DNA of 39,196 nt. Source: an uncultured Opitutia bacterium (GTDB lineage: Bacteria; Verrucomicrobiota; Verrucomicrobiia; Opitutales; UBA953). A program made the translations under genes and the position numbers. The stretch is taken from NCBI GenBank assembly GCA_937874455.1, contig CALNBE010000236.1, forward strand, positions 1 through 39,196. The letters run 5' to 3'. Below are positions 4,416 to 36,983 of this stretch, one piece after another (within the stretch, counting starts at the first letter, position 1; each line of letters begins with the position of its first letter). The notes beneath the pieces were generated by a model. That model searched no databases, had not been told where the DNA came from, and worked only from the letters and a program-made list of their open reading frames with translations.

Positions 4416-4430
4416 GGTGGTGTCGGGTGG

Positions 4431-4465
4431 GAAGAAAGAAGGGGCAGGGCTCTGGTCCCTGCCCC
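4431..4465 (-). terminator. rho-independent terminator after the major capsid gene
   Basis: Minus strand: GGGGCAGGG-ACCAGAG-CCCTGCCCC followed by TTCTTTCTTC, 20 nt after the capsid stop. Confidence 0.65.
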
Positions 4466-4484
4466 TTCCAAATGGTGGAAACGC

Positions 4485-5489: not shown

Positions 5490-5598
5490 GGGTAGTGGTT
5501 TGGGAGTGTGGGTAAAGCTCCCGCCTGTTCGGGAGCGCGTTTTGGCTCAGGAACAGACCACCGGTCCGATGTGCCTTCCCGGACCCCGGGTTGGCTCA

Positions 5599-5614
5599 TG
5601 CTGCGAAAGTGCCA
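5599..5614 (-). promoter_or_regulatory. candidate promoter box TGGCACTTTCGCAGCA upstream of the capsid gene (-24/-12-like spacing)
   Basis: The coding strand reads GTGGCAC-N6-CAGCA, the same frame as GTGGCAT-N6-CAGCA in cassettes E1 and E3 (GG-N10-GC). It lies just downstream of a terminator and about 110 nt upstream of the capsid ATG. Confidence 0.35.
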
Positions 5615-5632
5615 CGCCTTCCGTTCTGCACA

Positions 5633-5675
5633 AGGAAAAAATGAACCCCGCCAGGCTGGTAAGTTCCTGGCGGGG
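5633..5675 (-). terminator. rho-independent terminator between the scaffold and capsid genes
   Basis: Minus strand: CCCCGCCAGG-(10-nt loop)-CCTGGCGGGG followed by TTCATTTTTTCC. Confidence 0.65.
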
Positions 5676-5768
5676 TAGGGGTTGCTCTTGGCTGGCCCTT
5701 GGTGAGGCTGGTTCAAGTATGGACTTTTTTTATTTTAAATCCAGTCCTTTCCTGACTTATTTTCTGGC

Positions 5769-5784
5769 GGCGCCAATTGGCGCC
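5769..5784. repeat. palindrome copy 2 (scaffold-capsid intergenic region)
   Basis: Read directly from the sequence, 28 nt downstream of the scaffold stop. Confidence 0.9.
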
Positions 5785-5811
5785 GGATCTTTCCGTCGGG
5801 GAAAACCAGCC

Positions 5812-6624
5812 TCAAACGCCCTCGGTCCGGATTCCTGGTGTGCCGGCCGCGGCGGCGGCGGCGGCCTTCAGGGCACTGGCCTGGGCGGGGTTTTCGCGAA
5901 TCATCCTGGCCTGCTCGGTCAGGTTGAAATGCGGGGTGTTCTTGATGAACGGGTTCTGCGTCGGGCCTCCGCCCGCGCCTGCGCCCTGGCTCTGGGATCC
6001 GCTGCCCTGGCTCGGGTTGAAGAGGTGGGCGTAGGCTTTGTCCTTGGCCACGTCGGCGACCCAGTCGTCGATGCCCAGCGGCGCGCCAGCGGCGTTGTAT
6101 CGCTTCTCGGTGCCATTCATGGCCACCACGTTTCCGTTCTCATCGAGGCTGAACACGCCTTGGCCGCGGCGGACGAAGTCCTCGACGGCCTCGGGCCGGA
6201 GGCCGGCCTTGGTTCCTGCGGTGGTCAGGGCTCCGTCGATCTTGAGCTTGCCGATCTCGCTGGTGCGCTCGGTCAGCTTCTTGGTGGCCTCGGCCAGCTT
6301 GGCCTCGTATTCTGTCTTCATGGTGCCGACCCGCTTCTCGACGGCGGCGTCCAGGCCTTCAGTGGTGATGAGCTTCTTCTCGTCGAGGAGCTCGGCCCGG
6401 GTCTTCAGGGTCTTGTATTGATCCGGATCGACGTCCTTGAATTTTTCCACCAGGGCGTCCCGCTCCTTGAGCAGGGCGATATTGTTGTTCCGGAATTCCT
6501 CGAACTTGGCTTCAGGAACGGCTCCGTCCACCTGTAGCACCCACTTGGTGCCGGAGAGGGTGAAAAGGCTTTTGAACTCGGCGGGGATGTCTTCCTCTTT
6601 GTCGTAGATGAATTTTAGCTTCAT
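5812..6624 (-). CDS. capsid scaffolding protein
   Basis: 270-aa track ORF, charged and coiled-coil-like with a Gly/Ser/Ala-rich C-terminus, immediately upstream of the capsid gene. Confidence 0.6.
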   Translation of the reverse strand: MKLKFIYDKEEDIPAEFKSLFTLSGTKWVLQVDGAVPEAKFEEFRNNNIALLKERDALVEKFKDVDPDQYKTLKTRAELLDEKKLITTEGLDAAVEKRVGTMKTEYEAKLAEATKKLTERTSEIGKLKIDGALTTAGTKAGLRPEAVEDFVRRGQGVFSLDENGNVVAMNGTEKRYNAAGAPLGIDDWVADVAKDKAYAHLFNPSQGSGSQSQGAGAGGGPTQNPFIKNTPHFNLTEQARMIRENPAQASALKAAAAAAAGTPGIRTEGV

Positions 6625-6688
6625 GGCGCCCCGATTCTTGCCGCTCCCGGCTCCGGCGTCAAATGCGAGGAATCATCAAGGTTGATCC

Positions 6689-6705
6689 GTCAAGGAATCC
6701 TTGAC
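6689..6705. repeat. 17-bp palindrome GTCAAGGA-A-TCCTTGAC in the methyltransferase-scaffold intergenic region
   Basis: Read directly from the sequence. It is flanked by TCAAGG and TTGATCC/TTGGATCG repeats. Confidence 0.5.
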
Positions 6706-6797
6706 AGTTGGATCGTCTATGCGGTTTCCTCCCATGGCCCGAACGGCCTTCATGAAGGCCATGGCGCATCCCGGTGGACCTCCGTTGTGGGAAAACC

Positions 6798-8372
6798 TCA
6801 TTGCCTTCGGGAACTCGATGCTTGGTCGGGCCAGGTGATCAGCCAGGCGATCTTGATCCGCCGGCCAAGCCAGCGCATGACGGCCACGGCCATTGAGTTC
6901 CCGAGCGCCCGGTAGCGGGGGCTGTCCGGGCAGGCGTCTGGTTCTGCGCCCCTCCACGCGATCCGGGTGTGGCCGTCAGGGAAGCCCTGGAGCCGCTCGC
7001 ATTCGGTCGGAGTCAGCCTGCGGACGGCGTAGTCCATGGCGACTGTGGTGCTGCTGTTGCTGATCTCGCCCGGGGGGCTGGTGGTCAGGGCGCAGGCCAC
7101 TTCCGCCGGGGTGGCCGTGGACTTGGTGCCGTCGGCGCCGTGCAGGGTGTAGGCCACGAGGGCGCCGCGGTCGGATCCGCTCTGCTTCCCGTGGCTGGCC
7201 GGGCTGGTCGGTCCTGCCATCACGGTCGGGCTCACGTCCTCGACGTAAGCCACTGCCGGCATGGTGGCGACGCAGTGCGTCTTCACGGTCTCGAGTGCGC
7301 CCGTGATGTCCCCGAAGACCTGCGGGGCCCGGTCGTAGCCGCGCCCGTCGTCTCCCCGGGCGCGGCCGCTGAATGCGATGGCGCTGGGGTTTTTGGCGCC
7401 GAGGCTGGGGAGGCCTTCTTCCGCGACGGCTTGGGTGCCGGAGAGGTTGGCGGGGAAGGGGATGATGGTGCAGGTCTCCCAATCGTTCCGCTGGCCTTCT
7501 CCTTTCGTGATGCAGCCCGCGACTTCGGGGATGAGACCTCCGCTTGTTGCGAAAGTGTTTGCCCCGCTACGTCCGGCTCTACAGTCGAGGGTTGGCGCCC
7601 TTTCGGGGAGGATGTTGGCGTCGGGGCCTCGGTCGGAGTAGGGCCGGCGGGTGATGGGCTCTGCGATGCCACGGCCTCCAGTGCCTTCCGGAGCGGCTCC
7701 GGCAGGGCTTTGCCCCGGTTCTCTGCCCGGCGCAGAATCCCGGCGCATGCCTTCCCACTCAAATAAAACCTTGGTGGGATCGGGCCCGTTTCGAGGACTC
7801 GCGAAAGCAAACACACGCTCGCGTCGTTGGGCCAGGCCGAAATATTGGGCATCGAGGACCCGCCACGCGATTGTCCTTTTGGGTCCAAACACAGCACCAC
7901 AGTCTGTCCATCCGTCCCCTGGCGGTTGCAGCGGAACGTCTGCTCCGGCCAGCCCTGCCAGAAAATGTCCGTAGGGGTTGTCGTTGTGGTTGAGGACTCC
8001 GGGGACGTTTTCCCAGAGGCAAAGAGCGGGAGGTCGTCCAAAAAGGCTTCGGGCATGATCGATTCGTTCTAGCAGGTGGATAAAAATGAGGGTGAGGTTC
8101 CCGCGCTCGTCTTCGAGTCCGCCCCGCAGGCCGGCCTGGCTGAATGACTGGCAGGGGGTTCCGCCGACGAGCAGGTCGACCTGGGCGAGCAGGTCCAGCG
8201 GCCAGTCCCGGTATTTGGTCAGGTCGCCCAGGTTGGGAACGCGGGGGTGGTGGTGCCGGAGGACCTCAATGGGGAACTTCTCAATCTCGGCGAAGGCGAC
8301 CGGGGTCATGCCCAGGTCCCGCCATGCTGTGGACGCGGCCTCGATGCCCGAGCAGACACTAAGGAACTTCAT
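6798..8372 (-). CDS. DNA (cytosine-5) methyltransferase with very long variable region
   Basis: 524 aa. Motifs present: I (FLSVCSGIEA), IV (GGTPCQSFSQAG), VI (ENVPGVL), VIII (QRRERVF), IX (RRLTPTECERLQGFP), X (ALGNSMAV). About 255 aa separate motifs VIII and IX. Confidence 0.9.
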   Translation of the reverse strand: MKFLSVCSGIEAASTAWRDLGMTPVAFAEIEKFPIEVLRHHHPRVPNLGDLTKYRDWPLDLLAQVDLLVGGTPCQSFSQAGLRGGLEDERGNLTLIFIHLLERIDHARSLFGRPPALCLWENVPGVLNHNDNPYGHFLAGLAGADVPLQPPGDGWTDCGAVFGPKRTIAWRVLDAQYFGLAQRRERVFAFASPRNGPDPTKVLFEWEGMRRDSAPGREPGQSPAGAAPEGTGGRGIAEPITRRPYSDRGPDANILPERAPTLDCRAGRSGANTFATSGGLIPEVAGCITKGEGQRNDWETCTIIPFPANLSGTQAVAEEGLPSLGAKNPSAIAFSGRARGDDGRGYDRAPQVFGDITGALETVKTHCVATMPAVAYVEDVSPTVMAGPTSPASHGKQSGSDRGALVAYTLHGADGTKSTATPAEVACALTTSPPGEISNSSTTVAMDYAVRRLTPTECERLQGFPDGHTRIAWRGAEPDACPDSPRYRALGNSMAVAVMRWLGRRIKIAWLITWPDQASSSRRQ

Positions 8373-8422
8373 GGGTCAGGATGGTGGCGGTAAGGGTGAG
8401 GATCAGGGTCGTTCTCATGGGC

Positions 8423-8647
8423 TTAGGCTACGTGGAATCCGGCCAGGGCAAAGGCGGTTGCCAGGTTCATGGTGGTGTGGTGCTCAGGCCGGCCAAAGAT
8501 CCGGCGGGCCTCAGGGGCTTGGATCGTGCCTTCGTCGTCGGCGGCGTCCCAGATCTTCCGGGCCTTGGCTATCTGCTTACGGCCCGTGGCTTTGACTGTG
8601 CATTCCTGGCCGGCGCTATCGCCGAATTCAAAAGTTTGGGAGCTCAT
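8423..8647 (-). CDS. hypothetical small protein (cargo of repeat cassette E1)
   Basis: 74-aa track ORF with ATG at 8647, preceded by the conserved cassette and the GAACCC leader. Confidence 0.5.
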   Translation of the reverse strand: MSSQTFEFGDSAGQECTVKATGRKQIAKARKIWDAADDEGTIQAPEARRIFGRPEHHTTMNLATAFALAGFHVA

Positions 8648-8727
8648 GGTGGTGTCGGGTTCGGGTTCGTGCTGACACTATGCCACACTCAGTCAGGATA
8701 GCTAGTAGTTTTTTTAAATCTATGCAC
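8648..8727 (-). promoter_or_regulatory. conserved intergenic cassette E1 (A-tract box, TGGCATAGTGTCAGCA box, GAACCC leader)
   Basis: Coding strand reads TAAGTGCATAGATTTAAAAAAA-N24-TGGCATAGTGTCAGCACGAACCCGAACCCGACACCACC-ATG. It fills the whole gap between two genes. Confidence 0.6.
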
Positions 8728-9069
8728 TTATTTCATGGCGGCCAGGATAGCCGTGGTCACGGCGGCGGTGGCTTCATCCTCGGTCATGGCCGGGGTGATC
8801 CCGAACCGGGTCGCTGCCGCGGGGCTGGCCGTGCAGGCGTATTGGACGCACATGGCGATTGCCTGGACGTTCTCGCTCTCCAGCAGCTTGGTCCGCAGGC
8901 CGCGCAGGGCCTCGACCAGCCGGAGGGCCTCGGCCATGGCCGCGATCTCCTCTTCCTTCTGGACCTCGTTCATCCGGCAGGCTGGCTTCTTGTAGAAGCT
9001 TTTGCGCATGTTGAGTTCCCGGGCGAGGCAGCCCACGACCTTCGCAAGTTGGGGGCGTTCCTCAGGCAT
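8728..9069 (-). CDS. hypothetical protein
   Basis: 113-aa track ORF. Its start overlaps the upstream stop by 8 nt. Confidence 0.5.
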   Translation of the reverse strand: MPEERPQLAKVVGCLARELNMRKSFYKKPACRMNEVQKEEEIAAMAEALRLVEALRGLRTKLLESENVQAIAMCVQYACTASPAAATRFGITPAMTEDEATAAVTTAILAAMK

Positions 9070-9487
9070 GGTATCCTTTCCCCAGGCAGGCTGGGCATTG
9101 AATGGTCGGGCTGTCGACGTCGAGGCTGGCCTGTTCCCCGGTTCCTTGGCAGTCCGGGCAGCCGGTGATCGGCGGATGGAGCGTGCCCTGCCGGGCGCTG
9201 TATTTCAGGTAGGCCTCAACCTTGTATTTCTTCCGCTCCGCGGCAGTCCAGTCGATCCAGCCCATGGCCGGGAAGACTCCTTCAGCTGCCAGCATGCTGG
9301 CCACAGCGATCAGGTCTGTGATCTCGGCAAGTAGCCGTTCCCGGTTGGTTGGGCCATCGCCGGGCGGGCCGGTGGGGTCCAGTGTCTTCCGGTCGTCCAG
9401 CCCGAACCGGAGGCACTTGGTCGCGGCCTGGGCGACCTCGGCTCCCTCCTCGGCGAGTATTGTCAGTAGGTGTTCGGTGCGGTTCAT
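9062..9487 (-). CDS. MazG-like nucleotide pyrophosphohydrolase fused to a DnaJ-type zinc finger
   Basis: 141 aa. N-terminal LAEEGAEVAQAATKCLRFG is EExxE-type MazG-like. The C-terminus has CPDCQGTG...CPACLGKG, two CxxCxGxG units. Confidence 0.55.
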   Translation of the reverse strand: MNRTEHLLTILAEEGAEVAQAATKCLRFGLDDRKTLDPTGPPGDGPTNRERLLAEITDLIAVASMLAAEGVFPAMGWIDWTAAERKKYKVEAYLKYSARQGTLHPPITGCPDCQGTGEQASLDVDSPTIQCPACLGKGYHA

Positions 9488-9888
9488 GCGGTGGGGCTGG
9501 TTTTGCGGAGGGGAACCATGCGCAGGGCGTGGAACTCGTCGGCGGTGATCATGGGCCGGCCGGCCCGTTGGCAGGCCTGAACCAGGGCGCCTTGGCTCTC
9601 CTCGTAGGCCTTGTCGCTTATCTGGCGCTGGCGGGCTTCCTCTTTGACCTGCGTCTCAAGCTCGCACATGGGTTTCTGGCGCAAGGTGATCGGCGGGGTC
9701 TGGATGGTCGGCAGCGTGGGGTTCTTGAGCTCGTCCATGCGGTCCCGGTCGGGCTTTTTGGTGACCGGTGCCTGGAGCAGGCAAAGCGCCCGGTGGGGCA
9801 TGTCGAGGCTCAGCCGGCCGCTGGCGGGCTCGGGCCGGGAGGCGATGGTGGACAGGAACGGGCTGTGGGTGTTGCGGAATGGATCCAT
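9484..9888 (-). CDS. hypothetical protein
   Basis: Internal ATG (MDPFRNTHSP...) of the 362-aa track ORF 9484..10572. Its stop forms an ATGA overlap with the next gene. The longer ORF overlaps the GNAT and DUF4326 genes out of frame. Confidence 0.4.
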   Translation of the reverse strand: MDPFRNTHSPFLSTIASRPEPASGRLSLDMPHRALCLLQAPVTKKPDRDRMDELKNPTLPTIQTPPITLRQKPMCELETQVKEEARQRQISDKAYEESQGALVQACQRAGRPMITADEFHALRMVPLRKTSPTA

Positions 9889-9890
9889 GG

Positions 9891-10301
9891 TCAGGGGCGT
9901 TTCAGGTTGATGGCATAGCAGCGGTCGCCGTCGGCGAACTCGGCGGCAAGGCTGAAGCCGCGGGGCTCGTAGAACTTCCGGCCGAGGTGGTGGTTCATGG
10001 GGTTGAGGCTCAGGTTCAGTGCCTCGCAGCCGTCGCGCCGGGCTGCGCCTTTGCAGGCTTGGACAAGCTGGCTGCCGATACCCCGGTATCGGAACTTCTC
10101 GGCGACGAACAGCTGACGCATGCTGGCCACCGGCGGCACGGTGGAAACCCCGACCCGTCCGATGACCTCGGGGTAGATGGCGCTCCGGTTGGGGAAGCGC
10201 AGGGCGTGGAACTGGGTTTCCCGGATCCCGTCGACCTCGACGATGATTTCGGAAATGTAGATCTCGTCGTCGGCGGGTTTTACTGTTGGGTCTGCTTCCA
10301 T
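9891..10301 (-). CDS. GNAT-family N-acetyltransferase
   Basis: 136 aa. Motif A is VAEKFRYRGIGSQLV, followed by the ...RKFYEPRGF tail typical of GNAT. Confidence 0.75.
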   Translation of the reverse strand: MEADPTVKPADDEIYISEIIVEVDGIRETQFHALRFPNRSAIYPEVIGRVGVSTVPPVASMRQLFVAEKFRYRGIGSQLVQACKGAARRDGCEALNLSLNPMNHHLGRKFYEPRGFSLAAEFADGDRCYAINLKRP

Positions 10302-11077
10302 GCTTCGATTTTGGTTTTGGCGGTTGGTATGTCGGTTTCGAGGTATTCGGCGATCTCTCTCCAGCTGTCTCCCCGGGCGGCCATCTGGAGCGCGGACTTC
10401 CGCTCGGCGGCTTCCAAGTCCACACCCTTGGCCATGACCTCCGCCCGGGTCGGGTCCTTGATGGCTCCGGCCGGAATGTGCCTGGCGGCCAGTTCCTCAT
10501 CGGTCGCCCGCCGGGGTCCGGCCTGGCAGCCGCAGTGCCTCCAGATCCGGACCTTGTCGCTCCGGAGCTCAAGCTCCTTTCCGCAGTCGCACCGGCAAAG
10601 CCAGACGGTGTTCTTCGCGTCGCGGTGGCTGAACCGGATCACGGTGATCATGCCCAGCCGGTGGCCGGTCAGGTCGGTGAATTGGGCTTGCTGGTTGGAG
10701 TGCTTTCCGGTCTCTCCGGTCACGCGGTAGGCTGTGGGCATGGGTGGGTCTGGTTGTAGTTTGGCGAGGTCCAGCAGGACGTCGCGATGGCAGGGCTGGC
10801 CGTAGTTGCACCAGCATGCCAAATTCTTGCCGCGCAGGGGAGCGATGTATTCCTCGAGGCGGTCGGCGGGCCATGCCTGCAGGGCGGCGCGGAAACGGTC
10901 CACGCTGGCCTGTGCGGTGGCCTCCTGGTATGGGTTTCCCCAGGCGGTGGTCCGGTCCACCTTGATGGCCGGCAGACCGTTGGCGGCGTGGCTTGTGACC
11001 TGCAGGTTGAATCCCGCGGTCCGGCGCAGTTGGATTCCCCGGGGTTCTCCCCCGGGGATGCGAATGGCTTTGGGCAT
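10280..11077 (-). CDS. DUF4326-like domain protein with Cys-rich middle and C-terminal sigma70-region-4/LuxR-like HTH
   Basis: 265 aa. WGNPY...LRGKNLACWC..GQPCHRDVLL is DUF4326-like. WLCRCDCG...CGC forms a Cys cluster. RGDSWREIAEYLETDIPTAKTKI is HTH-like. Confidence 0.6.
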   Translation of the reverse strand: MPKAIRIPGGEPRGIQLRRTAGFNLQVTSHAANGLPAIKVDRTTAWGNPYQEATAQASVDRFRAALQAWPADRLEEYIAPLRGKNLACWCNYGQPCHRDVLLDLAKLQPDPPMPTAYRVTGETGKHSNQQAQFTDLTGHRLGMITVIRFSHRDAKNTVWLCRCDCGKELELRSDKVRIWRHCGCQAGPRRATDEELAARHIPAGAIKDPTRAEVMAKGVDLEAAERKSALQMAARGDSWREIAEYLETDIPTAKTKIEAWKQTQQ

Positions 11078-11178
11078 CAGAGCGGGCTCAGGTAGTAGGC
11101 CTTCAGGACCTGGTTCAAGCTCAGGATGGCGGCGGCGGTCAGGGCCAGGTAAAGCAGGCTGGTCAGGGCGCGTTTCAT
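11077..11178 (-). CDS. 33-aa hydrophobic peptide (possible membrane protein)
   Basis: My own translation gives MKRALTSLLYLALTAAAILSLNQVLKAYYLSPL. It has a GAACCC-type leader upstream and its stop overlaps the next ATG. It is too short for the ORF track. Confidence 0.35.
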   Translation of the reverse strand: MKRALTSLLYLALTAAAILSLNQVLKAYYLSPL

Positions 11179-11206
11179 GGTGGTATTGGGTTCGGATTCG
11201 TGGGGC

Positions 11207-11407
11207 TTAGGCTTGGGTGGCCAAGTTGGCGTCGGCGAGTTTTTCGAATTTGTCTATCAGCTGGCGGCGGCGGCGGGTCAGGCCGGAGTTCCGTGTGTTG
11301 CCCCGGGCTTCCCGGGCGTCGATCACGTTTCCAAGGCTGGTGATGTGCCGGGCCAGTTCGACCATGTCAGGGGTCATTTCCGGGGCTGTGTTGTTGGCGG
11401 TGCTCAT
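11207..11407 (-). CDS. hypothetical small protein (cargo of repeat cassette E2)
   Basis: 66-aa track ORF preceded by the conserved cassette and leader. Confidence 0.5.
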   Translation of the reverse strand: MSTANNTAPEMTPDMVELARHITSLGNVIDAREARGNTRNSGLTRRRRQLIDKFEKLADANLATQA

Positions 11408-11489
11408 GTTCGGTGTCGGGTTCGGGTTCGTGTCAGGAGTATGCCATGGGCCGTGGTGTTATCCACTCCTTTTTTTAAATCCATGCACT
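11408..11489 (-). promoter_or_regulatory. conserved intergenic cassette E2
   Basis: TAAAGTGCATGGATTTAAAAAAAGGAGTGGATAAC...TGGCATACTCCTGACACGAACCCGAACCCGACACCGAAC-ATG, in the same register as E1 and E3. Confidence 0.6.
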
Positions 11490-12719
11490 TTATTTTCGCT
11501 GCCTCGGCGGGGCCGGCACGAACTGCCCATCGTTGTCCAGATCGGCGATTGTCAGTCCCTTGGTCTCTGGTGGCGGCTCCCCGCGGCTGACCTTTGCGTC
11601 CAGCTGCTTCAGGGTCAGTGGCCGGTTGTTCTGGTCGGTCAGGTCGGACAGGCTGAGCTCTCCCTTGCCCCGGTTCCACCGTGCTGCCCGGCCCGGGCCC
11701 AGCGTCTTGTCGATGAACGTGTCGTCTTTCTTCGCGAGCCACTCGTCCATGGTCAGGTCCTTGTTGACCTGCCCGTCCATGCTGGCGCGGCTGTTGATGG
11801 TCACGGCCTCGATCTGCTCCTTGCTCATGCCCTGGGCGGCCAGCTTCTTTTTCACGGTGTCCTCCAGCTTCTTGTTGTCGAGGCTCGGCAGCTTCCTGCC
11901 CATGAGCTCTTCCCAGGACTTCAGGACCGGCACGCGGGTGGACCTGCAGTTCCAGTGGGCCGTGGTGCCGGGGTATGCCTTGTTGTGGCCGACCGGCTTG
12001 TAGTCGGGGATCGTCCAGATCTTTCCGGACAGCCCTTGGCAAATCAGGGTGGTCCGGCCGTCCAGGGTGCTGACCCACTGGATGGCGTCGACCACGTCGT
12101 CGAGGTCCTCAATGGTCTTTTCCCGGGCGGCGTTGGCGGTGCTGAGCGCGCTGGTCCGGACAAGGCTGGTGGCCTCCCTCCGGCTCACTGCCATCACGCC
12201 GTCGGTGTATCCGGCCTGTGCTGTGCCGCGGACCCGGCGGACCAGCTGCTCGTTGGTTTCGCCCAGAAGCTGGCCTCGGGTCATTTCCCCGCGGAACCGC
12301 TGCTGAAGGGATTCGTCCTGGCCCTGCCACCATGTCCTGGCCGAGTGGCCCATGATGTTGGGGCCGGTGCTGATTGCGGTCAGCTGGTTGAGGCTCAGGC
12401 TGACTCCGAGCACGTCGGCCCCGATCACTTCGTTGATGAATCCGACGGTGGCCTTGGCTTCCACGGTGGCCAGGCCGGCCAGCTGCTTCCGGTGCTTTTT
12501 CTCGATCCCCTCGTAAGCCAGCCGGATGCTGGCGGTGCATTCCTCCAGCATCCGGAGGAACCGGGTCCGGGCGTTGAGGCTCCGGGCGTTGGCCACTTTC
12601 CCGACGAGGTCGGTTTCGAGGTCCAGCAGCGCCTGCAGGGCGATCTGCTGGTGGCCGGCTGCCACGCGCAGGATGTCGATGGTGTGGCCGGTGAAGGCGT
12701 CGGGTAGGCGGTCGTCCAT
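11490..12719 (-). CDS. head morphogenesis protein (SPP1 gp7 / Mu F-like minor capsid protein)
   Basis: 409 aa. WVSTLDGRTTLICQGLSGKIW...HWNCRSTRVP is the hallmark of the Phage_Mu_F family. Confidence 0.8.
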   Translation of the reverse strand: MDDRLPDAFTGHTIDILRVAAGHQQIALQALLDLETDLVGKVANARSLNARTRFLRMLEECTASIRLAYEGIEKKHRKQLAGLATVEAKATVGFINEVIGADVLGVSLSLNQLTAISTGPNIMGHSARTWWQGQDESLQQRFRGEMTRGQLLGETNEQLVRRVRGTAQAGYTDGVMAVSRREATSLVRTSALSTANAAREKTIEDLDDVVDAIQWVSTLDGRTTLICQGLSGKIWTIPDYKPVGHNKAYPGTTAHWNCRSTRVPVLKSWEELMGRKLPSLDNKKLEDTVKKKLAAQGMSKEQIEAVTINSRASMDGQVNKDLTMDEWLAKKDDTFIDKTLGPGRAARWNRGKGELSLSDLTDQNNRPLTLKQLDAKVSRGEPPPETKGLTIADLDNDGQFVPAPPRQRK

Positions 12720-12740
12720 GGCCTCCAGCTTGAACGAAGA

Positions 12741-12775
12741 ACGGCGGACCGCAACTCACGGCCCGCCGTCTTTTT
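12741..12775. terminator. GC hairpin whose T-run is on the plus strand
   Basis: ACGGCGG...CCGCCGT followed by CTTTTTCC on the plus strand. On the minus strand the trailing sequence is only TCTTCGTTC. Confidence 0.35.
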
Positions 12776-12818
12776 CCATCCGGTCGAACCCCCCCAGGGT
12801 TCATGTGGATGCTCCGTT

Positions 12819-13067
12819 CTACGCGGCCTTGGCCGTGGTGTCAACGCTCCAGGTGTTCTGAGGCACCGGGCAGGTCTCAAGGCCTGAAGTCATGACCTGT
12901 GCGGCGGTGGTGTATGCTTCCATCCGGCCCCAGGCTTCACACTCGCGCTGGGAATGTTCCCCGTGCTTGGCTTTGACGTTCTGCCAGTCGCGGCGGGCGT
13001 CCTGGGCGATACGGATCAGGATCTCCATGTTGAATTCGATCTTCTCGGCTCTGCGCTTCTGGTTCAT
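12819..13067 (-). CDS. hypothetical protein
   Basis: 82-aa track ORF with a stable hairpin upstream. Confidence 0.45.
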   Translation of the reverse strand: MNQKRRAEKIEFNMEILIRIAQDARRDWQNVKAKHGEHSQRECEAWGRMEAYTTAAQVMTSGLETCPVPQNTWSVDTTAKAA

Positions 13068-13092
13068 CGTGTTCGGGTGGTTGAATGTTCGG

Positions 13093-13143
13093 CCAGGGGC
13101 AGGGCTGGGAAGGGCCTCGTCCGGAGGTGGGCCCTGCCCCTGG
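13093..13143 (-). other. 13-bp perfect stem-loop between two small genes (no U-run)
   Basis: CCAGGGGCAGGGC...GCCCTGCCCCTGG. It shares the GGGGCAGGG stem sequence with the capsid terminator. Confidence 0.45.
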
Positions 13144-13176
13144 CTTGCTCGGCTTCCGGCACTCGCCGGGCCGAAA

Positions 13177-13434
13177 TTATGCGGCGGCGATGGTGGCTTC
13201 GATCACCGCGGTGGGGGTCTCGCTGGTGAAGGTCGCGCTCCAGATCAGGATCCCGTTTTTGGTGAAAGCCCGGATGGCCCAGGAGGGTTTGTCGGCTCCT
13301 TCAAATTCGGCGGTTACGCTGATCACCGTGCCGTCGGTTTTGGTCCATTCGATCTGCCGGCTTTCGGCGTTGTCGTATCGGCCAGTCTTGAATCCGTTGG
13401 CGAGGAGGCGGTCGAGGAAGGCTGTGGTTTTCAT
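13177..13434 (-). CDS. hypothetical small protein (cargo of repeat cassette E3)
   Basis: 85-aa track ORF preceded by the conserved cassette and leader. Confidence 0.5.
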   Translation of the reverse strand: MKTTAFLDRLLANGFKTGRYDNAESRQIEWTKTDGTVISVTAEFEGADKPSWAIRAFTKNGILIWSATFTSETPTAVIEATIAAA

Positions 13435-13516
13435 GGTCGGGTCGGGTTCGGGTTCGTGCTGACACTATGCCACGTCCTTCCTTGTTATCCACTCCTTTTT
13501 TTAAATCTATGCACTT
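13435..13516 (-). promoter_or_regulatory. conserved intergenic cassette E3
   Basis: TAAAAGTGCATAGATTTAAAAAAAGGAGTGGATAAC...TGGCATAGTGTCAGCACGAACCCGAACCCGACCCGACC-ATG. Confidence 0.6.
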
Positions 13517-14017
13517 TTATTCGTCCTCGGGCAGGCAGCCATCCGGGGCCGGCGGTTTCGGGCAGGCCGGCCGGCACGGGCCGGGGCCGGGTGTCTCCTC
13601 TCCGCACTCCGGGCAGATCGAAAGCTGCAGCTCTCCCCGAAGGTAGAGGATCAGGGCCTCCCGGTCATACCAGAAAATGACCGGGCTGCGCTGGTCGCAC
13701 ACGAAGTGCACGGGGCAGTTGAACTGGTCGGCCAGACCGGGCCGGAATCGTGGAACTGTCACGGCCACGACCTCCGGTAGGGCCGGGTCGAAGTGCTCGC
13801 GGAAATATCCGTCAGTGTGGAAGAACCACATGTCGTTCCGCTTCACGATCCAATCCCCGGGCTGGCAGGCGGCCTCGTTGGGGTAGGCAGGAAAGGACAG
13901 GTCTCCGGCCTGGTTGAGCTTCAGGCTGGGCATCAGGGCCCGGACCTGCTCGGCATTGCGGCCCGTCCATTGGATGGCCTCGACGGGCTGGGGTTTGGTT
14001 TTATGCGTCGGGGTCAT
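13517..14017 (-). CDS. hypothetical protein, Cys/Pro-rich C-terminus
   Basis: 166-aa track ORF. The N-terminal PVEAIQWTGRNAEQV resembles the N-terminus of 29610..30554. Confidence 0.5.
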   Translation of the reverse strand: MTPTHKTKPQPVEAIQWTGRNAEQVRALMPSLKLNQAGDLSFPAYPNEAACQPGDWIVKRNDMWFFHTDGYFREHFDPALPEVVAVTVPRFRPGLADQFNCPVHFVCDQRSPVIFWYDREALILYLRGELQLSICPECGEETPGPGPCRPACPKPPAPDGCLPEDE

Positions 14018-14031
14018 CGGCTTGGTCGGCC

Positions 14032-14505
14032 TCAGTCATCGTTCGGGTTGAGCGGGTCGGTGCCTTTGCCTCCTTCCAGCCGGACCAGCGTCCGGGCCTT
14101 CCAGAGCTCGATCAGCCCGAGGGCGGCCAGCCGGTCTCCCCAGAAGACGTGGGCGGTGCTGATCGTCTCGGTGCCCTCGCTGGTCACGGCGAAGATCACC
14201 CCGGCCCGGGTGTGCTCGGAAACGTCGCGGTAGATCTCGTTGAAGGCCTCCACGTCGGCTGCCGTCAGACCATGCCCACCCTTCCTGTCCTTGATGTTGA
14301 TCAGCCGGTGCAGGGCGACCTGCTGGATGGTCGTTCCCCAGTGGGTCCAGAACCATTGCGACCCGTTGTCTTCCCCGGGGTTCTCTGCTTCCACGATGAC
14401 CACCCCGGCGGTGGTCAGGCCGGCCAGGGCCTCCTTGGAAAAGCCGAGGAGGTCGTTCATGAATTTGGCGTGCTGGTCGTGCTGGTCTTGCTGGGTCTGG
14501 TTCAT
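14032..14505 (-). CDS. hypothetical protein
   Basis: 157-aa track ORF directly after the portal gene and palindrome copy 3. Confidence 0.5.
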   Translation of the reverse strand: MNQTQQDQHDQHAKFMNDLLGFSKEALAGLTTAGVVIVEAENPGEDNGSQWFWTHWGTTIQQVALHRLINIKDRKGGHGLTAADVEAFNEIYRDVSEHTRAGVIFAVTSEGTETISTAHVFWGDRLAALGLIELWKARTLVRLEGGKGTDPLNPNDD

Positions 14506-14537: not shown

Positions 14538-14553
14538 GGCGCCAATTGGCGCC
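14538..14553. repeat. palindrome copy 3 (immediately after the portal stop)
   Basis: Read directly from the sequence. It carries the extended form TCCGGCGCCAATTGGCGCCGAGG. Confidence 0.9.
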
Positions 14554-23218: not shown

Positions 23219-23352
23219 GTCGGGATCGGGTTCGGATGGGCCCTCCCCGCCGGCTGCCTGGTCCTCTGCCAGCGCCGTCGGGAAGGGTTGGTTACCGGGG
23301 CTTGCGGTCCGGTTGCTGCCACCATGGGGCCGGTTCCGTGGCTGGCAACTAC

Positions 23353-23364
23353 TTTTTTTAAATC
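23353..23364 (-). repeat. fourth copy of the GATTTAAAAAAA box (partial cassette upstream of 22913..23218)
   Basis: The plus strand reads tttttttaaatc, identical to the 12-mer at about 8709, 11470 and 13496. A degenerate variant lies at about 5722-5745. Confidence 0.55.
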
Positions 23365-23423
23365 CGTTCCGTTTGGGTGGTAACGAAGCGTTTTTCGTGA
23401 CCTCCATCGGGGGAATTGGGTCC

Positions 23424-23439
23424 GGCGCCAATTGGCGCC
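23424..23439. repeat. palindrome copy 4 (immediately after the terL stop)
   Basis: Read directly from the sequence. Its extended 23-bp form is identical to that of copy 3. Confidence 0.9.
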
Positions 23440-27469: not shown

Positions 27470-27642
27470 GGGTTGGCGGGTTCGGGTTCGGTGGTGGGTG
27501 CTTTGCTCCAGCCTCCGGCGCAGTTGGGCCTGCCTCTTCCGTCCCCGTGCAGGGCAAAGTATCCGTTCTTTTTGACTTTCCGCCGGTTCTTGCAGAACGG
27601 GCAGATGGCGGAGGGGAAGTGGCGGGGTTTTTCAGTCTTCAT
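27466..27642 (-). CDS. 58-aa zinc-ribbon-like peptide
   Basis: My own translation gives MKTEKPRHFPSAICPFCKNRRKVKKNGYFALHGDGRGRPNCAGGWSKAPTTEPEPANP. Its stop overlaps the methyltransferase ATG. It is below the ORF-track length cut-off. Confidence 0.4.
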   Translation of the reverse strand: MKTEKPRHFPSAICPFCKNRRKVKKNGYFALHGDGRGRPNCAGGWSKAPTTEPEPANP

Positions 27643-30554: not shown

Positions 30555-31081
30555 GTCGGATTTGGGTTCGGTTTCAGTGCCTGGCTCCAGGCTTCGAGTT
30601 TCTTCCGGTGGTGGCCGAAATTGCGGTTTATGGTCCGGCGGCAAACGATGCGTTCCCGCTCCTTTACGAAGTCCTGCCAGTCCGGGTGGCAAAGCGGGAA
30701 AATCGGCAGGGTCAGGCTCCGCTTGGAATTGCATCGGGAGCAGGCCGGGAGGTAGTTCCGCATCGTGTTCCCTCCGCCCATGGACTTCGGGAAAATGTGC
30801 TCCCGGGTCCAGTCCCGCCAATGGGCCGGCTTGGCGCAGTAAACGCACTGGTAGCCGGTCTGGCTCCAGAGTTGGGTGATCTGGGCGCCCGGGCTGGGCG
30901 GGGTGGTTTTTGGCGCAAACTTGGTGGGGTCGGTCATCTGCGGTCCGGGGGTTCCTTTGGCTGGCCATGCTGCAGGGTTGGCCATGATTCCGGCCACGCG
31001 CCGGCTGTGCGCTTCTTGCCGCTTGAGGACCAGCATCAGCTGCTCGGGGCTCCAAAAGGCTGGAGGGGCGTGCGGATCCAT
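30551..31081 (-). CDS. HNH endonuclease
   Basis: 176 aa. The HNH core is CVYC...TREHIFPKSMGGGNTMRNYLPACSRCNSKR. Confidence 0.8.
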   Translation of the reverse strand: MDPHAPPAFWSPEQLMLVLKRQEAHSRRVAGIMANPAAWPAKGTPGPQMTDPTKFAPKTTPPSPGAQITQLWSQTGYQCVYCAKPAHWRDWTREHIFPKSMGGGNTMRNYLPACSRCNSKRSLTLPIFPLCHPDWQDFVKERERIVCRRTINRNFGHHRKKLEAWSQALKPNPNPT

Positions 31082-32659: not shown

Positions 32660-32683
32660 GTTCGGGTTCGGGTTCGGATTTTC

Positions 32684-32729
32684 GGCACTTTTCCCCAATT
32701 TTTTGGGGTGTCCATCGGGGAAAAGTGCC
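32684..32729 (-). promoter_or_regulatory. nested inverted repeat in the leader of the SF2 helicase gene
   Basis: GGCACTTTTCCCC (32684-32696) pairs with GGGGAAAAGTGCC (32717-32729). The inner repeat CCCCAATTTTTTGGGG lies at 32693-32708. Confidence 0.55.
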
Positions 32730-32731
32730 TC

Positions 32732-32747
32732 GGCGCCAATTGGCGCC
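32732..32747. repeat. palindrome copy 5 (upstream of the SF2 helicase gene)
   Basis: Read directly from the sequence. It has the same 23-bp extended form in inverted orientation. Confidence 0.9.
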
Positions 32748-33028: not shown

Positions 33029-33059
33029 GGTGGGTTGGGTTTGGGTTCGGTTCTGTCGA

Positions 33060-34519: not shown

Positions 34520-34745
34520 CGTAATTCGTCGGGTTCGGGTCGGTTCGGAGTCGGGTGATGATCAGGTTCAGGACGTGCTCACGCACGGCGAGGATGTGTC
34601 TGCAACGCCGTTTCCGGCATGTCCAGTCCTCGCAGCTGCATTGGCCGTCCGGGAGCTTCCCAAGGTCGACGAGGTGATGCTCGCCCGGACGGCTGTGGCT
34701 GGGGACCAGCCACCGCAGCAGGTGGTCATGCGGGATCGGCTGCAT
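34512..34745 (-). CDS. SWIM zinc-finger protein
   Basis: 77 aa. CSCEDWTCRKRRCRHI fits CxCxnCxH. Confidence 0.65.
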   Translation of the reverse strand: MQPIPHDHLLRWLVPSHSRPGEHHLVDLGKLPDGQCSCEDWTCRKRRCRHILAVREHVLNLIITRLRTDPNPTNYDG

Positions 34746-36283: not shown

Positions 36284-36983
36284 GTGAGGTCGGGTTCGGG
36301 TTCGGTGAAATGTCCTGCCAGCGCTCCTCGTGGAACCACGTGGATCCGTGCGGCGTGAATGGCAGGCATTTGCCATCACTTCCGGCTCTGGACAAGGCAT
36401 AAGTCTTGGTCCGGGCCAAAAGTTCAGGTGCGGTTATTTTTTTCTTCCGGAGGGCTTGGCGGATGTAGTCGAGGGCCTTCTTTTTGCCCTCCTTGTTGGG
36501 GTAGGCTTTCCAGATCTCCTCGATGATTTCGGATCCGGCTTTGATCTCCTTGCTGGCATCCCCCTCCAACGCAAACGCCCCCCCTGGGGGGCATAAGTCT
36601 TTATTCTCATTCTTTTCTTTCTCTATATATGGCGTTTCCCCATTTGGGGAAAAGGCGTTCCCCATTTGGGGAAAGTCGTTTCCCCATTTGGGGAAATCCG
36701 GCTCAGGATGAACCGCCATGAGCATGCGCTGGTCTCCGTCTTTCCATCTTCGGAGCCAGCCTTTTTCGATCAGATTCGTGATGGCATTGGCCACGCTTTT
36801 TTCCGCAATATCGAAGGTCCGGGCGAGGTGTTCGTTGGTCGCAAAGCACCCTCCCCGGGTGTGGCTGAAAAGGGCGTGGATCTGGGCCCAGAGCAGGCGC
36901 TCAATCCAGCGCAGTCCCTGCGCGTCGATGATGTCGACGGGCAGGAACAGGCCGGTGAATCGGCGGTGAGGTCCGTCGCTCAT
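36231..36983 (-). CDS. replisome organizer / replication initiator (wHTH N-terminus, DnaD-like C-terminus)
   Basis: ATG at 36983 (MSDGPHRRFTG...) with an ATGA overlap. FATNEHLARTFDIAEKSVANAITNLIEKGWL is an HTH. The C-terminus IWKAYPNKEGKKKALDYI...STWFHEERWQD is typical of phage replication proteins. The iterons lie in the linker-coding part. Confidence 0.6.
   Translation of the reverse strand: MSDGPHRRFTGLFLPVDIIDAQGLRWIERLLWAQIHALFSHTRGGCFATNEHLARTFDIAEKSVANAITNLIEKGWLRRWKDGDQRMLMAVHPEPDFPKWGNDFPQMGNAFSPNGETPYIEKEKNENKDLCPPGGAFALEGDASKEIKAGSEIIEEIWKAYPNKEGKKKALDYIRQALRKKKITAPELLARTKTYALSRAGSDGKCLPFTPHGSTWFHEERWQDISPNPNPTSHDQSTTPPADPDRPWLW
36595..36630. other. AT-rich tract adjacent to the iterons (candidate DNA unwinding element)
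   Basis: taagtctttattctcattcttttctttctctatatat, in an otherwise ~63% GC context. Confidence 0.5.
36631..36697. repeat. three tandem 22-bp iterons (core TTCCCCATTTGGGGAA): candidate origin of replication
   Basis: Cores lie at about 36636-36651, 36658-36673 and 36680-36695. Each is an inverted repeat TTCCCCA/TGGGGAA. They sit inside the initiator gene. Confidence 0.65.

Follow-up and report, generated by a model that had tools for sequence, protein, structure and literature searches.

The window analysed here, a stretch of 39,196 nucleotides (contig CALNBE010000236.1), has a measured GC content of 63.7%, close to the ~63% given in a first-pass annotation made from the sequence alone. Three of its intergenic gaps are occupied by members of one repeat family, which we named cassettes E1, E2, and E3. 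All three lie on the minus (coding) strand, and each fills its gap from the upstream TAA to the downstream ATG: E1 (8648..8727) runs from the stop of a 113-aa gene to the start of a 74-aa gene, E2 (11408..11489) from the stop of the Mu-F gene to the start of a 66-aa gene, and E3 (13435..13516) from the stop of a 166-aa gene to the start of an 85-aa gene. The cassettes align in register over 86 nt with 67-81% identity to E1, which bears out the initial description of three fully occupied ~80-bp gaps with a single architecture. That architecture was also as first described, except that the variable stretch from the A7 run to TGGCATA measures exactly 23 nt, not 24, in every cassette. Past TGGCATA, they continue with 9 nt, CGAACCCGAACCCGAC, 6-7 nt, and the ATG, and the spacing is the same in each.

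Shared blocks link the copies in pairs. As reported earlier, GGAGTGGATAAC is common to E2 and E3, while GTGTCAGCA is common to E1 and E3. E3 is a mosaic, with the 12-nt -35 block of E2 and the 9-nt discriminator of E1, which suggests that sequence was exchanged among the copies by recombination. The 12-mer GATTTAAAAAAA, for which a fourth copy and a degenerate version near 5722-5745 had been noted, was indeed found four times exactly and once with one mismatch (5730-5741), always on the minus strand (0.05 copies expected by chance). Because two contigs of another, independent assembly (ERZ27283054) are 100% identical to the window across E1 and E3, the cassettes are not an assembly artefact.

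The genes that follow the cassettes, all on the minus strand, encode products of 74 aa (E1, 8423..8647), 66 aa (E2, 11207..11407), and 85 aa (E3, 13177..13434). These proteins are ORFans with no relation among them, in agreement with the first reading; the 85-aa product has only a sub-threshold match to DUF317. A confident single-sequence fold was obtained for the 74-aa product (pLDDT 87), with no match in the PDB. It had been proposed that these genes are wedged between head-morphogenesis genes, but only E2 directly adjoins one (Mu-F/SPP1 gp7-like, 11490-12719). E3 is located between the portal-adjacent genes and Mu-F, and E1 within an accessory block (MazG-like, DUF4326/HNH, acetyltransferase, and methylase genes) that has Mu-F on one side and the scaffold and capsid genes on the other. 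An intrinsic-terminator-like hairpin (12733..12770, minus strand), consisting of a 13-bp stem plus UUCUUCGUU, closes the E3 unit just before Mu-F. A perfect 14-bp inverted repeat (13092..13144, minus strand), which separates the E3 cargo gene from the small gene that follows, would form a very stable hairpin with no U-tract. Nothing terminator-like was detected past the first gene of E1 or E2, and both cassettes appear to lie at the head of a polycistronic accessory block. The term "moron-like", applied at first to all three units, thus holds for E3 only, as it alone ends at a terminator. In the window, which is an incomplete genome, we saw no genes for lysogeny, tails, or lysis.

The upstream part of each cassette has the layout of a promoter. 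The upstream block, GTGCATAGATTTAAAAAAA in E1 (8709..8727, with the A7 run at 8709-8715) and E3 (13496..13514) and GTGCATGGATTTAAAAAAA in E2 (11470..11488), occupies the position of an UP element, predicted at -57..-39. Four nucleotides downstream lies a -35-like hexamer: a weak TAGCTA in E1 (8699..8704; 3/6, with T1, G3, and A6 kept) and TGGATA, matching at 4/6, in E2 (11460..11465) and E3 (13486..13491). A 16-bp spacer separates this hexamer from an extended -10 element, TGG-CATAGT in E1 (8677..8685) and E3 (13464..13472) and TGG-CATACT in E2 (11438..11446). Transcription is predicted to start 7 nt past the -10, at the A of an invariant 'CA' directly before CGAACCC (positions 8670, 11431, and 13457 on the minus strand). 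Given these starts, the -10 would be at -12..-7, the TG at -15/-14, the -35 at -34..-29, and the A7 run at -45..-39. The proximal UP subsite consensus AAAAAARNR (PMC4132738), which was derived from E. coli, is matched at 9/9 positions by AAAAAAAGG of E2 and E3 and at 8/9 by E1.

The pattern A5-N6-TnGnnA-N17-nAnnnT, which was partly derived from these sites, matches only at E1, E2, E3, and one additional place (0.01 matches expected), and all four matches are intergenic and on the coding strand. The additional match belongs to a fourth promoter-like unit, S4 (23321..23365, minus strand), located after the large terminase gene and sharing the geometry of the cassettes: GGATTTAAAAAAA, 4 nt, TTGCCA, 16 nt, CATGGT (no TG), and GGCAGC-A. 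Its predicted 5'UTR is 96 nt. A fifth site, with the degenerate A/T block GGATTTAAAATAAAAAAA (5725..5742, minus strand), has no convincing -10 downstream, and its role as a promoter is therefore doubtful. A stock sigma70 scanner did not call E1-E3. The class of promoter had initially been left as unknown; the UP-like block, weak -35, and extended -10, together with the equivalent units of related phages, point to a promoter of the primary-sigma (sigma70) type, on the assumption that E. coli-derived consensus sequences apply to the host.

The last part of the cassettes is not specific to them. The CGAACCCGAACCCGAC motif occurs 12 times, without exception on the minus strand, and 11 genes have it 0-8 nt ahead of their ATG. 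In E1 (8654..8669; no Shine-Dalgarno sequence), E2 (11415..11430), and E3 (13441..13456), it is start-associated; two of the 12 sites overlap, both at E2. A copy at 36289..36304 precedes the ATG at 36283 of a DnaC-like loader gene. Copies with one mismatch precede the ATGs at 32659 (helicase gene; 32661..32676) and 27469 (ParB-methyltransferase gene; 27475..27490, inside the upstream ORF), and another (23219..23234), which ends the S4 5'UTR, adjoins the ATG at 23218. Copies with two mismatches precede the ATGs at 34519 (34528..34543) and 33028 (33034..33049); a third such copy (30555..30570) lies in the 3'-terminal part of the upstream ORF and adjoins the ATG at 30554 in an ATGA overlap. Finally, a copy with three mismatches (11185..11200) precedes the ATG (11178) with which the E2 unit's second gene begins. 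As about nine other genes use CGAACCCGAACCCGAC, this 3' third of the cassette does not belong to a portable unit.

The predicted 5'UTR of the cassettes is ~23-24 nt long and consists of CGAACCCGAACCCGAC plus 6-7 nt. It is A/C-rich, nearly devoid of G and U, unstructured, and lacks a Shine-Dalgarno sequence; the G/U-poor stretch starts exactly at the predicted +1. CGAACCCGAACCC is a stretch of the leader sequence. None of the 11 leader-bearing genes has a Shine-Dalgarno sequence. Leader 6-mers are enriched 12-18x at -25..-1, and 7/8 copies of CCCGAACCC are at most 30 nt from a start, while Shine-Dalgarno-like words are no commoner than at random positions (7 observed vs 7.8 expected). CA-rich and ACA elements are known translation enhancers, even without a Shine-Dalgarno sequence (PMC3879156), and lineages that rely on upstream-nucleotide context rather than on this sequence have been described (PMC6847099). 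From its position and composition, we infer that the CGAACCCGAACCCGAC leader is a start-associated translation-initiation region for a host that does not use Shine-Dalgarno pairing.

Related, syntenic phages (MuF 50-58% identical) were found to carry their own repeated cassettes, with a matching layout, in four genomic slots shared with the window, behind TerL, the portal-adjacent gene, MuF, and the homologue of the 113-aa gene. The cargo at these conserved slots consists of ORFans and varies between phages, so that the original proposal of portable promoter-plus-gene insertions fits poorly. The units of the relatives are canonical TTGACG-17-TGnTATCAT promoters followed by their own A/C-rich leaders. 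In L018, an 88-nt cassette (AAAAAATAAAAAATCG-TTTGACG-17-TGG-TATCAT...ATG) is present in four copies, three of which were called as sigma70 promoters with a TG by an independent scanner. In L014, the scanner called TTGACG-17-TGC-GATAGT and TTGACG-17-CATACT, and similar units lie directly after MuF in L016 and L013. In every unit, the -10 retains its A at position 2 and its T at position 6. The relatives are also depleted in Shine-Dalgarno sequences, and their A/C-rich leader words differ from phage to phage.

Several other explanations were weighed. The cassettes were first described as phage-specific promoters with an UP-like A-tract at a fixed distance from the core; their sequence does look like that of a promoter, but a phage-specific factor is not indicated. 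We consider it unlikely that they depend on a phage-encoded activator bound to the GTGCATRGATTTAAAAAAA block, or on a phage sigma factor or RNA polymerase, and are expressed at middle or late times instead of being constitutive early promoters. The upstream 19-20 nt are identical in the three copies save for one R position, AGTGCATRGA is found exactly only in these cassettes, and the -35 is weak, a trait of many activator-dependent promoters; a regulator could also be encoded outside the window, which is an incomplete genome. The conservation of the 19-nt block, including its non-A/T GTGCAT part, is stricter than alpha-CTD contacts require, and could reflect a specific DNA-binding activator or simply a recent duplication; the near-identity of the copies may likewise stem from recent copying and not from functional constraint. 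However, this block covers the stretch that an UP element would span, GTGCAT is missing from S4 and most relatives but GATTTAAAA and the A-tract are retained, the canonical boxes of the relatives need no activator on paper, and the scanned proteins of the window include neither a sigma factor nor an RNA polymerase. A sigma54 promoter (-24 GG/-12 GC) made of TGGCAT-N5-CAGCA, with the A-tract bending the DNA for an enhancer-binding activator, has next to no chance of being correct. The GG-N10-GC spacing exists in TGGCATAGTGTCAGCA of E1 and E3, and a similar TGGCACTTTCGCAGCA is upstream of the capsid gene (5599-5614), but E2 has TGGCATACTCCTGACA and thus no -12 GC. The boxes of the relatives (TGCGATAGT, TGGTATCAT, and TGGCAATAT) lack either the GG or the GC and keep TGn-nAnnnT, with TTGACG 17 bp upstream, and the protein scan revealed no enhancer-binding protein; this candidate was rejected.

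A primary role as recombination modules, in which exchange keeps the copies nearly identical and shuffles the ORFan cargo while promoter activity is secondary, seems quite improbable to us. It would account for the mosaic structure of E3, for cassettes that are more alike within the genome of each related phage than between genomes, and for the differing cargo, and it has a documented precedent in PeSL (PMC2839356). Yet the second assembly matches the window exactly and so shows no variants, and the searched collections hold no relative with more than 58% MuF identity, so that no cassette-bounded indel or swap could be demonstrated. Such exchange is moreover compatible with a promoter and leader, and does not replace them. 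There is very little chance that the repeats are not promoters at all and represent MITE-like remnants, a structured small RNA or riboswitch, or a terminator that acts in both directions through the A/T run, even though they are repeated, intergenic, ~80 bp long, and carry an A7/T7 run unusual for a 64% GC genome. The copies are co-oriented with the genes and fill the stop-to-start gap exactly, and no terminal inverted repeats or target duplications surround them, contrary to the mobile-element origin raised earlier. The small-RNA alternative also failed, as folds of either strand were no better than shuffles (z-scores -1.4 to +1.0) and Rfam gave no match. The terminator scan found nothing at the cassette coordinates on either strand, and the plus-strand T-run in E1 and E3 has no preceding hairpin.

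We therefore favor, as the likely explanation, cassettes built from two separable parts, a host-type promoter and a short leader without a Shine-Dalgarno sequence, that together would form a transcription-plus-translation start module. The promoter would be read by the host primary-sigma (sigma70-family) RNA polymerase, with the C-terminal domains of its alpha subunits contacting the GTGCATRGATTTAAAAAAA block, at about -57 to -39, as an UP element whose proximal subsite is the A7 run. This contact, along with the TG extension, would make up for the weak -35 (TnGnnA), and transcription would begin at the A of the 'CA' past TGG-CATA(G/C)T. The leader motif is placed by the phage before other starts as well. 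From slots directly after conserved structural genes, the cassettes would turn on lineage-specific ORFan or accessory genes, different in each case, and this expression, embedded in the head-gene region, is probably early and host RNAP-dependent. The cassettes are real and tidy, yet they are an instance of an already known kind, and their two closest analogues are the PeSL cassettes of T4-type phages and the start-associated sequences of Cluster K phages.

Every gene of the window lies on the minus strand; the cassettes are hence read here as reverse complements. Alignment of the three stop-to-ATG gaps of about 80 bp, E1 (8648-8727), E2 (11408-11489), and E3 (13435-13516), placed them in a single repeat family (D1), in which invariant blocks are separated by variable stretches of fixed length. 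The repeated cassette reported in the first-pass annotation is therefore confirmed. Its layout was also borne out, namely a TAA stop, (A)GTGCATRGATTTAAAAAAA, 23 nt, TGGCATA, 9 nt, CGAACCCGAACCCGAC, 6-7 nt, and the ATG, except that the first variable stretch is 23 nt in all three cassettes and not 24. The word GATTTAAAAAAA is found on the minus strand only, in four exact copies and one copy with one mismatch, when 0.05 would be expected by chance. Two contigs of another assembly (ENA ERZ27283054) are 100% identical to positions 4137-10517 and 11706-14388 of the window, which excludes an assembly artefact as the source of the repeats. Owing to this identity, no differences were seen between the cassettes of the two assemblies, and the second assembly is uninformative on natural variation. 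E3 is a mosaic, with an E2-like -35 block and an E1-like discriminator; together with the greater similarity of cassettes within than between genomes, this sequence pattern hints at exchange between copies.

Searches for the cassette in other sequence collections were made with several of its parts. No match to TGGCATANTNNNNNCACGAACCCGAACCC was found in viral contigs, and the two matches to GATTTAAAAAAA-N23-TGGCATA in such contigs, both in DNA of ~20% GC, were set aside as chance. The ten matches to GTGCATRGATTTAAAAAAA among GTDB genomes belong to unrelated taxa and were likewise judged to be due to chance. In metagenomes, CACGAACCCGAACCCGAC gave at least 120 matches, and the cassette context was present in none among the matches listed.

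The conserved blocks can be read as a promoter when the transcription start (+1) is set at the A of the invariant CA, i.e., at predicted positions 8670 (E1), 11431 (E2), and 13457 (E3). Relative to this predicted +1 and on the minus strand, a -10 hexamer (CATAGT in E1 and E3, CATACT in E2) occupies positions -12 to -7, a TG extension -15/-14, a -35-like hexamer (TAGCTA in E1, TGGATA in E2 and E3) -34 to -29, an A7 tract -45 to -39, and the complete conserved upstream block -57 to -39. The -10 hexamer has A2 and T6 in E1-E3, about 7 nt before the predicted start, and these are kept in related phages; the TGG ahead of it is present in E1-E3 and in most units of the relatives, and is missing from S4, a fourth promoter-like unit. 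The -35 of the window retains three to four of six consensus positions (T1, G3, and A6 are kept) with a spacer of 16 bp, and E1-E3 were not called by a stock consensus sigma70 scanner; in the relatives, the -35 is TTGACG, 17 bp from the -10. The conserved block has exactly the span of a UP element, including an A/T-rich distal part, and AAAAAAAGG agrees with the proximal UP subsite consensus AAAAAARNR (as cited in PMC4132738), to which E2 and E3 conform at 9/9 positions and E1 at 8/9. The UP element and the TG extension would compensate for the weak -35. Downstream, a leader poor in G and U starts exactly at the predicted +1, giving a 5'UTR of 23-24 nt made of the leader motif.

S4 (23321-23365), the fourth A-tract site, shares the geometry of E1-E3; its -35 (TTGCCA) is better than theirs, but its -10 (CATGGT, without TG) is poorer. 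A generic promoter-feature pattern matched only E1, E2, E3, and S4 in the window, with 0.01 matches expected. Having been built in part on the very sites that it matched, the pattern chiefly shows that S4 is in register.

Neither nucleotide relatives among GenBank phages nor a related locus in viral contigs, searched with the MuF protein, were found. Homologues of this Mu-F/SPP1 gp7-like head protein (11490-12719) share 50-58% identity with it; many MuF/gp7 homologues are much longer and fused to C-terminal domains, such as the ADP-ribosyltransferase PF03496, and the protein of the window has 409 aa and no C-terminal extension. Contigs of related phages (L013, L014, L016, L017, and L018) are syntenic with the window in the order TerL, accessory genes, portal, small genes, MuF, accessory genes and methylases, scaffold, and capsid. 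The window encodes at least three DNA methyltransferases, including those at 6798-8372 and 26138-27469, the latter as a ParB fusion; the relatives encode others. The contigs of the relatives have a GC content of 59-64% and are depleted in Shine-Dalgarno (SD) sequences, with leaders of ~70% A+C whose preferred words differ from contig to contig. Matches to the capsid and portal proteins by tblastn were spread over many host phyla, and no host was singled out.

Each relative has its own repeated intergenic cassette, laid out as in the window. In L018, an 88-nt unit, AAAAAATAAAAAATCG-TTTGACG-N17-TGG-TATCAT-...-CTCCTACT-ATG, is present four times, and three of these copies were called sigma70 promoters with a TG extension by an independent consensus scanner. 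The units of L014 read AACAAAAAGACG-TTGACG-N17-(TGC)GATAGT or CATACT, and those right after MuF in L016 and L013 read GATTTAAAAGAAAAG...TGC-GATAGT and TTTACA-N16-TGG-CAATAT. When anchored on the -10, the units share a common order: an A/T-rich block, ~4 nt, the -35, 16-17 bp, usually TGn, a hexamer with A2 and T6, 6-7 nt ending in CA, an A/C-rich leader, and the ATG. Because the positions of the elements and the units of the relatives match the UP/extended -10 layout, we assigned E1-E3 to putative primary-sigma promoters, with the reservation that this consensus may not be that of the host.

The four units of the window directly follow conserved genes, and the relatives have promoter-bearing gaps at the same positions, with different cargo. 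The S4 slot, after TerL, is found at 1773 in L014 and 1597 in L018. The E2 slot, after MuF, is found at 5321 in L013, 2217 in L016, and 2511 in L017, and at the E1 slot, after a gene coding for 113 aa, the L014 homologue is followed by a promoter at 5298-5326. After the portal-adjacent 166-aa gene, i.e., at the E3 slot, L014 and L016 have a TTGACA-N17-TAAAAG/TAGAAA promoter, about 80-100 nt, and an intrinsic terminator, and L013 has a tRNA-Asn. No ORF was called between promoter and terminator in L014 (9825-10000) and L016 (712-909), which are candidate small RNAs; the tRNA-Asn(GTT) of L013 is at 3749-3823, and the window itself contains no tRNA genes.

The 3' module of the cassette, the A/C-rich SD-free leader, has a wider distribution. 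Allowing up to three mismatches, CGAACCCGAACCCGAC has 14 copies on the minus strand and none on the plus strand (1.6 expected), and for 12 of the 14 the ATG of a long ORF follows 0-8 nt downstream. In total, 11 genes have the motif, as the E2 gene is served by two overlapping copies; among them are those coding for a DnaC-like loader, a helicase, and the ParB-methyltransferase, and the gene after the large terminase. Some copies lie within the 3' end of the upstream ORF (e.g., 30555-30570 and 27475-27490). The motif, CGAACCCGAACCC, is a tandem CGAACC repeat, and the words CGAACC, CCGAAC, and GAACCC are enriched 12-18-fold at -25 to -1 of 42 start sites. Seven of the eight copies of CCCGAACCC are within 30 nt of a start, and position -1 is a C in 29 of the 42 starts. 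SD-like words occurred 7 times upstream of these starts, compared with 7.8 expected at random positions. Since its copies precede starts genome-wide and SD-like words remain at the random level, we take the 3' module to be a start-associated leader without SD, with a putative role in translation. The first-pass annotation had listed this module as part of the cassette; with 12 copies before the ATGs of 11 genes, it is not private to E1-E3. The reading of the cassette as a promoter with a UP-like A-tract in that annotation is supported by sequence and comparison.

The phage host is evidently not an SD user. CA-rich/ACA elements acting as translation enhancers (PMC3879156) and hosts that do not use SD (PMC6847099) have been described, and by analogy provide a plausible way for the leader to work. 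The entire group, comprising the window and L013-L018, lacks SD sequences and has leaders of ~70% A+C, with ACC or CC directly before the ATG, a context that resembles Kozak sequences. In L018, a more distant relative, one gene has a leader of the (CCCGAA)n type, cctgaacccgaacccgaaccccgaaccccgaaccacacccgaacc-ATG (13811-13850), and GAACCC repeat leaders are thus not unique to the phage of the window. The coding strand strongly favors C over G and A over T (A 0.23, C 0.35, G 0.29, T 0.14). At ~64% GC, the host seems to use both canonical TTGACG/TAnnnT promoters and SD-independent initiation.

The three cargo genes encode proteins of 74 aa (E1, 8423-8647), 66 aa (E2, 11207-11407), and 85 aa (E3, 13177-13434), which are, as first proposed, unrelated to each other, and also to anything in the relatives. 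Searches of large protein collections retrieved only the proteins themselves, and matches in Pfam and PHROGs were all below threshold. The 74-aa protein (minus strand) yielded a confident single-sequence AlphaFold (AF2) model, with a pLDDT of 87 and two strands followed by three helices; it has no significant fold match in the PDB and no sequence homologue among 5.8 billion proteins. The confidence of this predicted fold supports the 74-aa ORF as a real gene. The 85-aa protein gave a model that was too weak for a fold search. The GC content of the cargo genes is 0.60-0.62 compared with ~0.65 for their neighbors, and their GC3 0.73-0.79 compared with 0.77-0.89, both slightly lower.

The transcription units that these genes would belong to are not alike. 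After the E3 cargo gene, the gap at 13068-13176 (minus strand) contains two very stable hairpins (-54.7 kcal/mol, z = -4.7) that include a perfect 14-bp inverted repeat and have no U-tract; they could be an attenuator, a stabilizer, or a processing site. A canonical terminator at 12733-12770, right before MuF, ends the E3 unit after two small genes, and E3, with its predicted promoter, is thus the start of a short unit that runs from promoter to terminator. No structure and no terminator were seen in the gaps behind the cargo genes of E1 and E2, and the next terminator identified downstream on the minus strand is at 5636-5675; the predicted promoters of E1 and E2 thus appear to head a polycistronic accessory block. 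The qualification of the units as moron-like is therefore fair for E3, which runs from promoter to terminator, but not for E1 and E2. The cargo is absent from the relatives, in which the corresponding slots are taken up by a candidate small RNA, a tRNA, or different cargo, itself promoter-driven. The comparison with related phages, which the first-pass annotation had suggested, thus gave units at the same slots before other genes; since the slots are conserved, portable insertion fits poorly, and conserved promoter slots with variable cargo are a better description than moron.

Taken together, the cassettes are probably host-polymerase promoters of the UP plus extended -10 type, fused to a phage-wide SD-free leader and driving ORFans from conserved slots. 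Other classes of element were considered and rejected. A sigma54 promoter (-24 GG/-12 GC) would account for TGGCAT-N5-CAGCA in E1 and E3, but E2 has no -12 GC and the boxes of the relatives are missing either the GG or the GC. The cassettes could also encode a structured RNA, a riboswitch, or a small RNA, the last of which the first-pass annotation had proposed to examine by folding; neither strand folds better than shuffled sequences (z from -1.4 to +1.0), and Rfam gave no matches. Likewise, a terminator scan found nothing at the coordinates of E1-E3. Repeated copies would be expected of a MITE or the remnant of another mobile element, but terminal inverted repeats and target duplications, for which the surroundings of the copies were checked as initially suggested, are absent, and all copies are oriented with the genes. 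A programmed frameshift at A_AAA_AAG was rejected by eye, as the A-run comes after the upstream stop codon and the three pairs of upstream and downstream genes are unrelated.

A bolder extension of the promoter-leader reading, which we consider rather unlikely, would make CGAACCCGAACCC a dedicated, lineage-specific SD-free ribosome-recruitment signal that is read by a particular partner, be it a protein of the phage or host or a part of the rRNA other than the 3' tail, in a GC-rich, non-SD host. The promoter-leader cassettes would then be standardized docking and recombination modules for ORFan swaps at the head-cluster slots of these siphoviruses, and private versions of both signals would be kept in each phage lineage by concerted evolution.

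Several other elements were seen in the window. A 16-bp palindrome, GGCGCCAATTGGCGCC, has six exact copies (3067-3082, 5769-5784, 14538-14553, 23424-23439, 32732-32747, and 37495-37510), four of which are 4-27 nt past the stop of TerL, the portal gene, the 32756 gene, and the 5812 gene. These four post-stop copies are each accompanied by TTTCCCCGA(T/C), at 32712, 23404, 14518, and 5793, and two of them are followed by the A-tract GGATTTAAAA, in a hairpin-plus-promoter arrangement like that of PeSL cassettes. The palindromes may serve as operators, attenuator hairpins, or processing sites, and analogous AATT-centered palindromes are found in relatives (TCCGCAAATTTGCGGA in L014, TTGCGCAAATTTGCAA in L013). 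Another palindrome, TTCCCCAAATGGGGAA, is repeated three times in tandem with a spacing of 22 bp at 36636-36695 (minus strand), upstream of the gene for the DnaC-like loader and within a stretch of 696 nt for which our rough map shows no gene. The helicase gene is preceded by a 13-bp inverted repeat, GGCACTTTTCCCC...GGGGAAAAGTGCC, at 32684-32729. This repeat and the TTCCCCAAATGGGGAA array look like iterons or operators, and may mark an origin or a region bound by a regulator.

Strong conservation was seen in the 5'UTR of the major capsid gene (CGGRCCGGTGGYCTGTTC...GCTCCCGAACAGGCGGGAG; window 5490-5580, minus strand; L013 9950-10057; L014 16856-16949; L017 6382-6470), though the encoded proteins share no more than 59-67% identity. 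This 5'UTR has two predicted hairpins, with one compensatory pair (A-U to G-C), is just downstream of the strong intrinsic terminator at 5636-5675, and may be a regulatory RNA element for late/capsid expression. Between this terminator and the conserved 5'UTR, TGGCACTTTCGCAGCA at 5599-5614 (minus strand) is a good sigma54-like GG-N10-GC match, which is probably fortuitous since the sequence is not conserved as such in L013, L014, and L017.

If the proposed reading is true, the cassettes provide a ready map of transcription and translation for an uncultured phage group, as they would mark host-polymerase promoters inside the structural cluster and the ORFans that these drive, which are candidate host-takeover or anti-defense genes. 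No established principle is contradicted, and we consider the interest of the cassettes to be moderate, mainly through the leader. This by-product is the more interesting part: a strictly placed, SD-free tandem CGAACC before 11 genes, with lineage-specific counterparts in relatives, would be a clean natural system for start-site selection without SD pairing in a GC-rich host. It also bears on whether start-associated sequences of the Cluster K type are a wider phage strategy, and the ~80-bp promoter and leader parts could be used as expression modules for non-SD hosts.

Among known systems, the promoter-early stem-loop (PeSL) cassettes of T4-type phages (Arbiol et al. 2010, PMC2839356; Comeau et al. 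2014, PMC4122927) are similar in being repeated intergenic cassettes that run from the upstream stop in an A/T-rich tract, through a sigma70-like promoter, to the ribosome-binding region and start. They are also found mostly before ORFans in variable regions, as is the case here, where the cargo consists of ORFans and the regions vary between relatives, and copies within one genome resemble each other. However, PeSL cassettes have a terminator stem-loop, which E1-E3 lack (coding-strand fold z from -0.7 to +1.0); a hairpin-forming palindrome is present upstream only at S4 and at site 5, a degenerate A/T block (5725-5742). In addition, the phage of the window is not T4-like, having a portal, Mu-F/SPP1 gp7, and HK97-type head module, its cassettes end 3' in the SD-free leader rather than an SD, and recombination between its copies is only suggested by the E3 mosaic.

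The leader is closest to the start-associated sequences (SAS/ESAS) of Cluster K mycobacteriophages (Pope et al. 2011, PMC3203893). Each is a short asymmetric motif that occurs in a single orientation, a few nt before the starts of many genes of different families; both are ATG-associated, sometimes overlap the end of the upstream gene, are lineage-specific, and are presumed to be translational. Unlike the leader motif CGAACCCGAACCC, the SAS (GGGATAGGAGCCC) contains the SD core AGGAG, which is able to pair with the 16S 3' end. About half of the SAS sites have an upstream 17-bp inverted repeat (ESAS), whereas none is found upstream of the leader copies, and the motif of the window differs in being a tandem CGAACC repeat.

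The putative promoter part resembles sigma70 promoters with a UP element and an extended -10 in its A-tract at about -45 to -39, its A/T-rich distal part, the TG at -15/-14, and the A2 and T6 of the -10. It departs from the UP consensus by a conserved non-A/T segment, GTGCAT, within the block. Among phages, an example is given by the early promoters of T4, whose upstream region is A-rich. The concept of the moron, a promoter-gene-terminator unit of lambdoid phages, reportedly goes back to Juhala and Hendrix in 2000. As with those morons, the extra genes have their own, here predicted, promoter among virion genes and are absent from relatives, and the E3 unit runs from promoter to terminator between conserved genes. 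On the other hand, neither E1 nor E2 is closed by its own terminator, the flanking genes are separated in relatives, where other cargo occupies the slots, the cargo differs only slightly from its neighbors in composition, and no sign of lysogeny or of expression from a prophage was seen. PeSL-like cassettes and SAS-like leaders are already known, and the cassettes described here are new as a variant.
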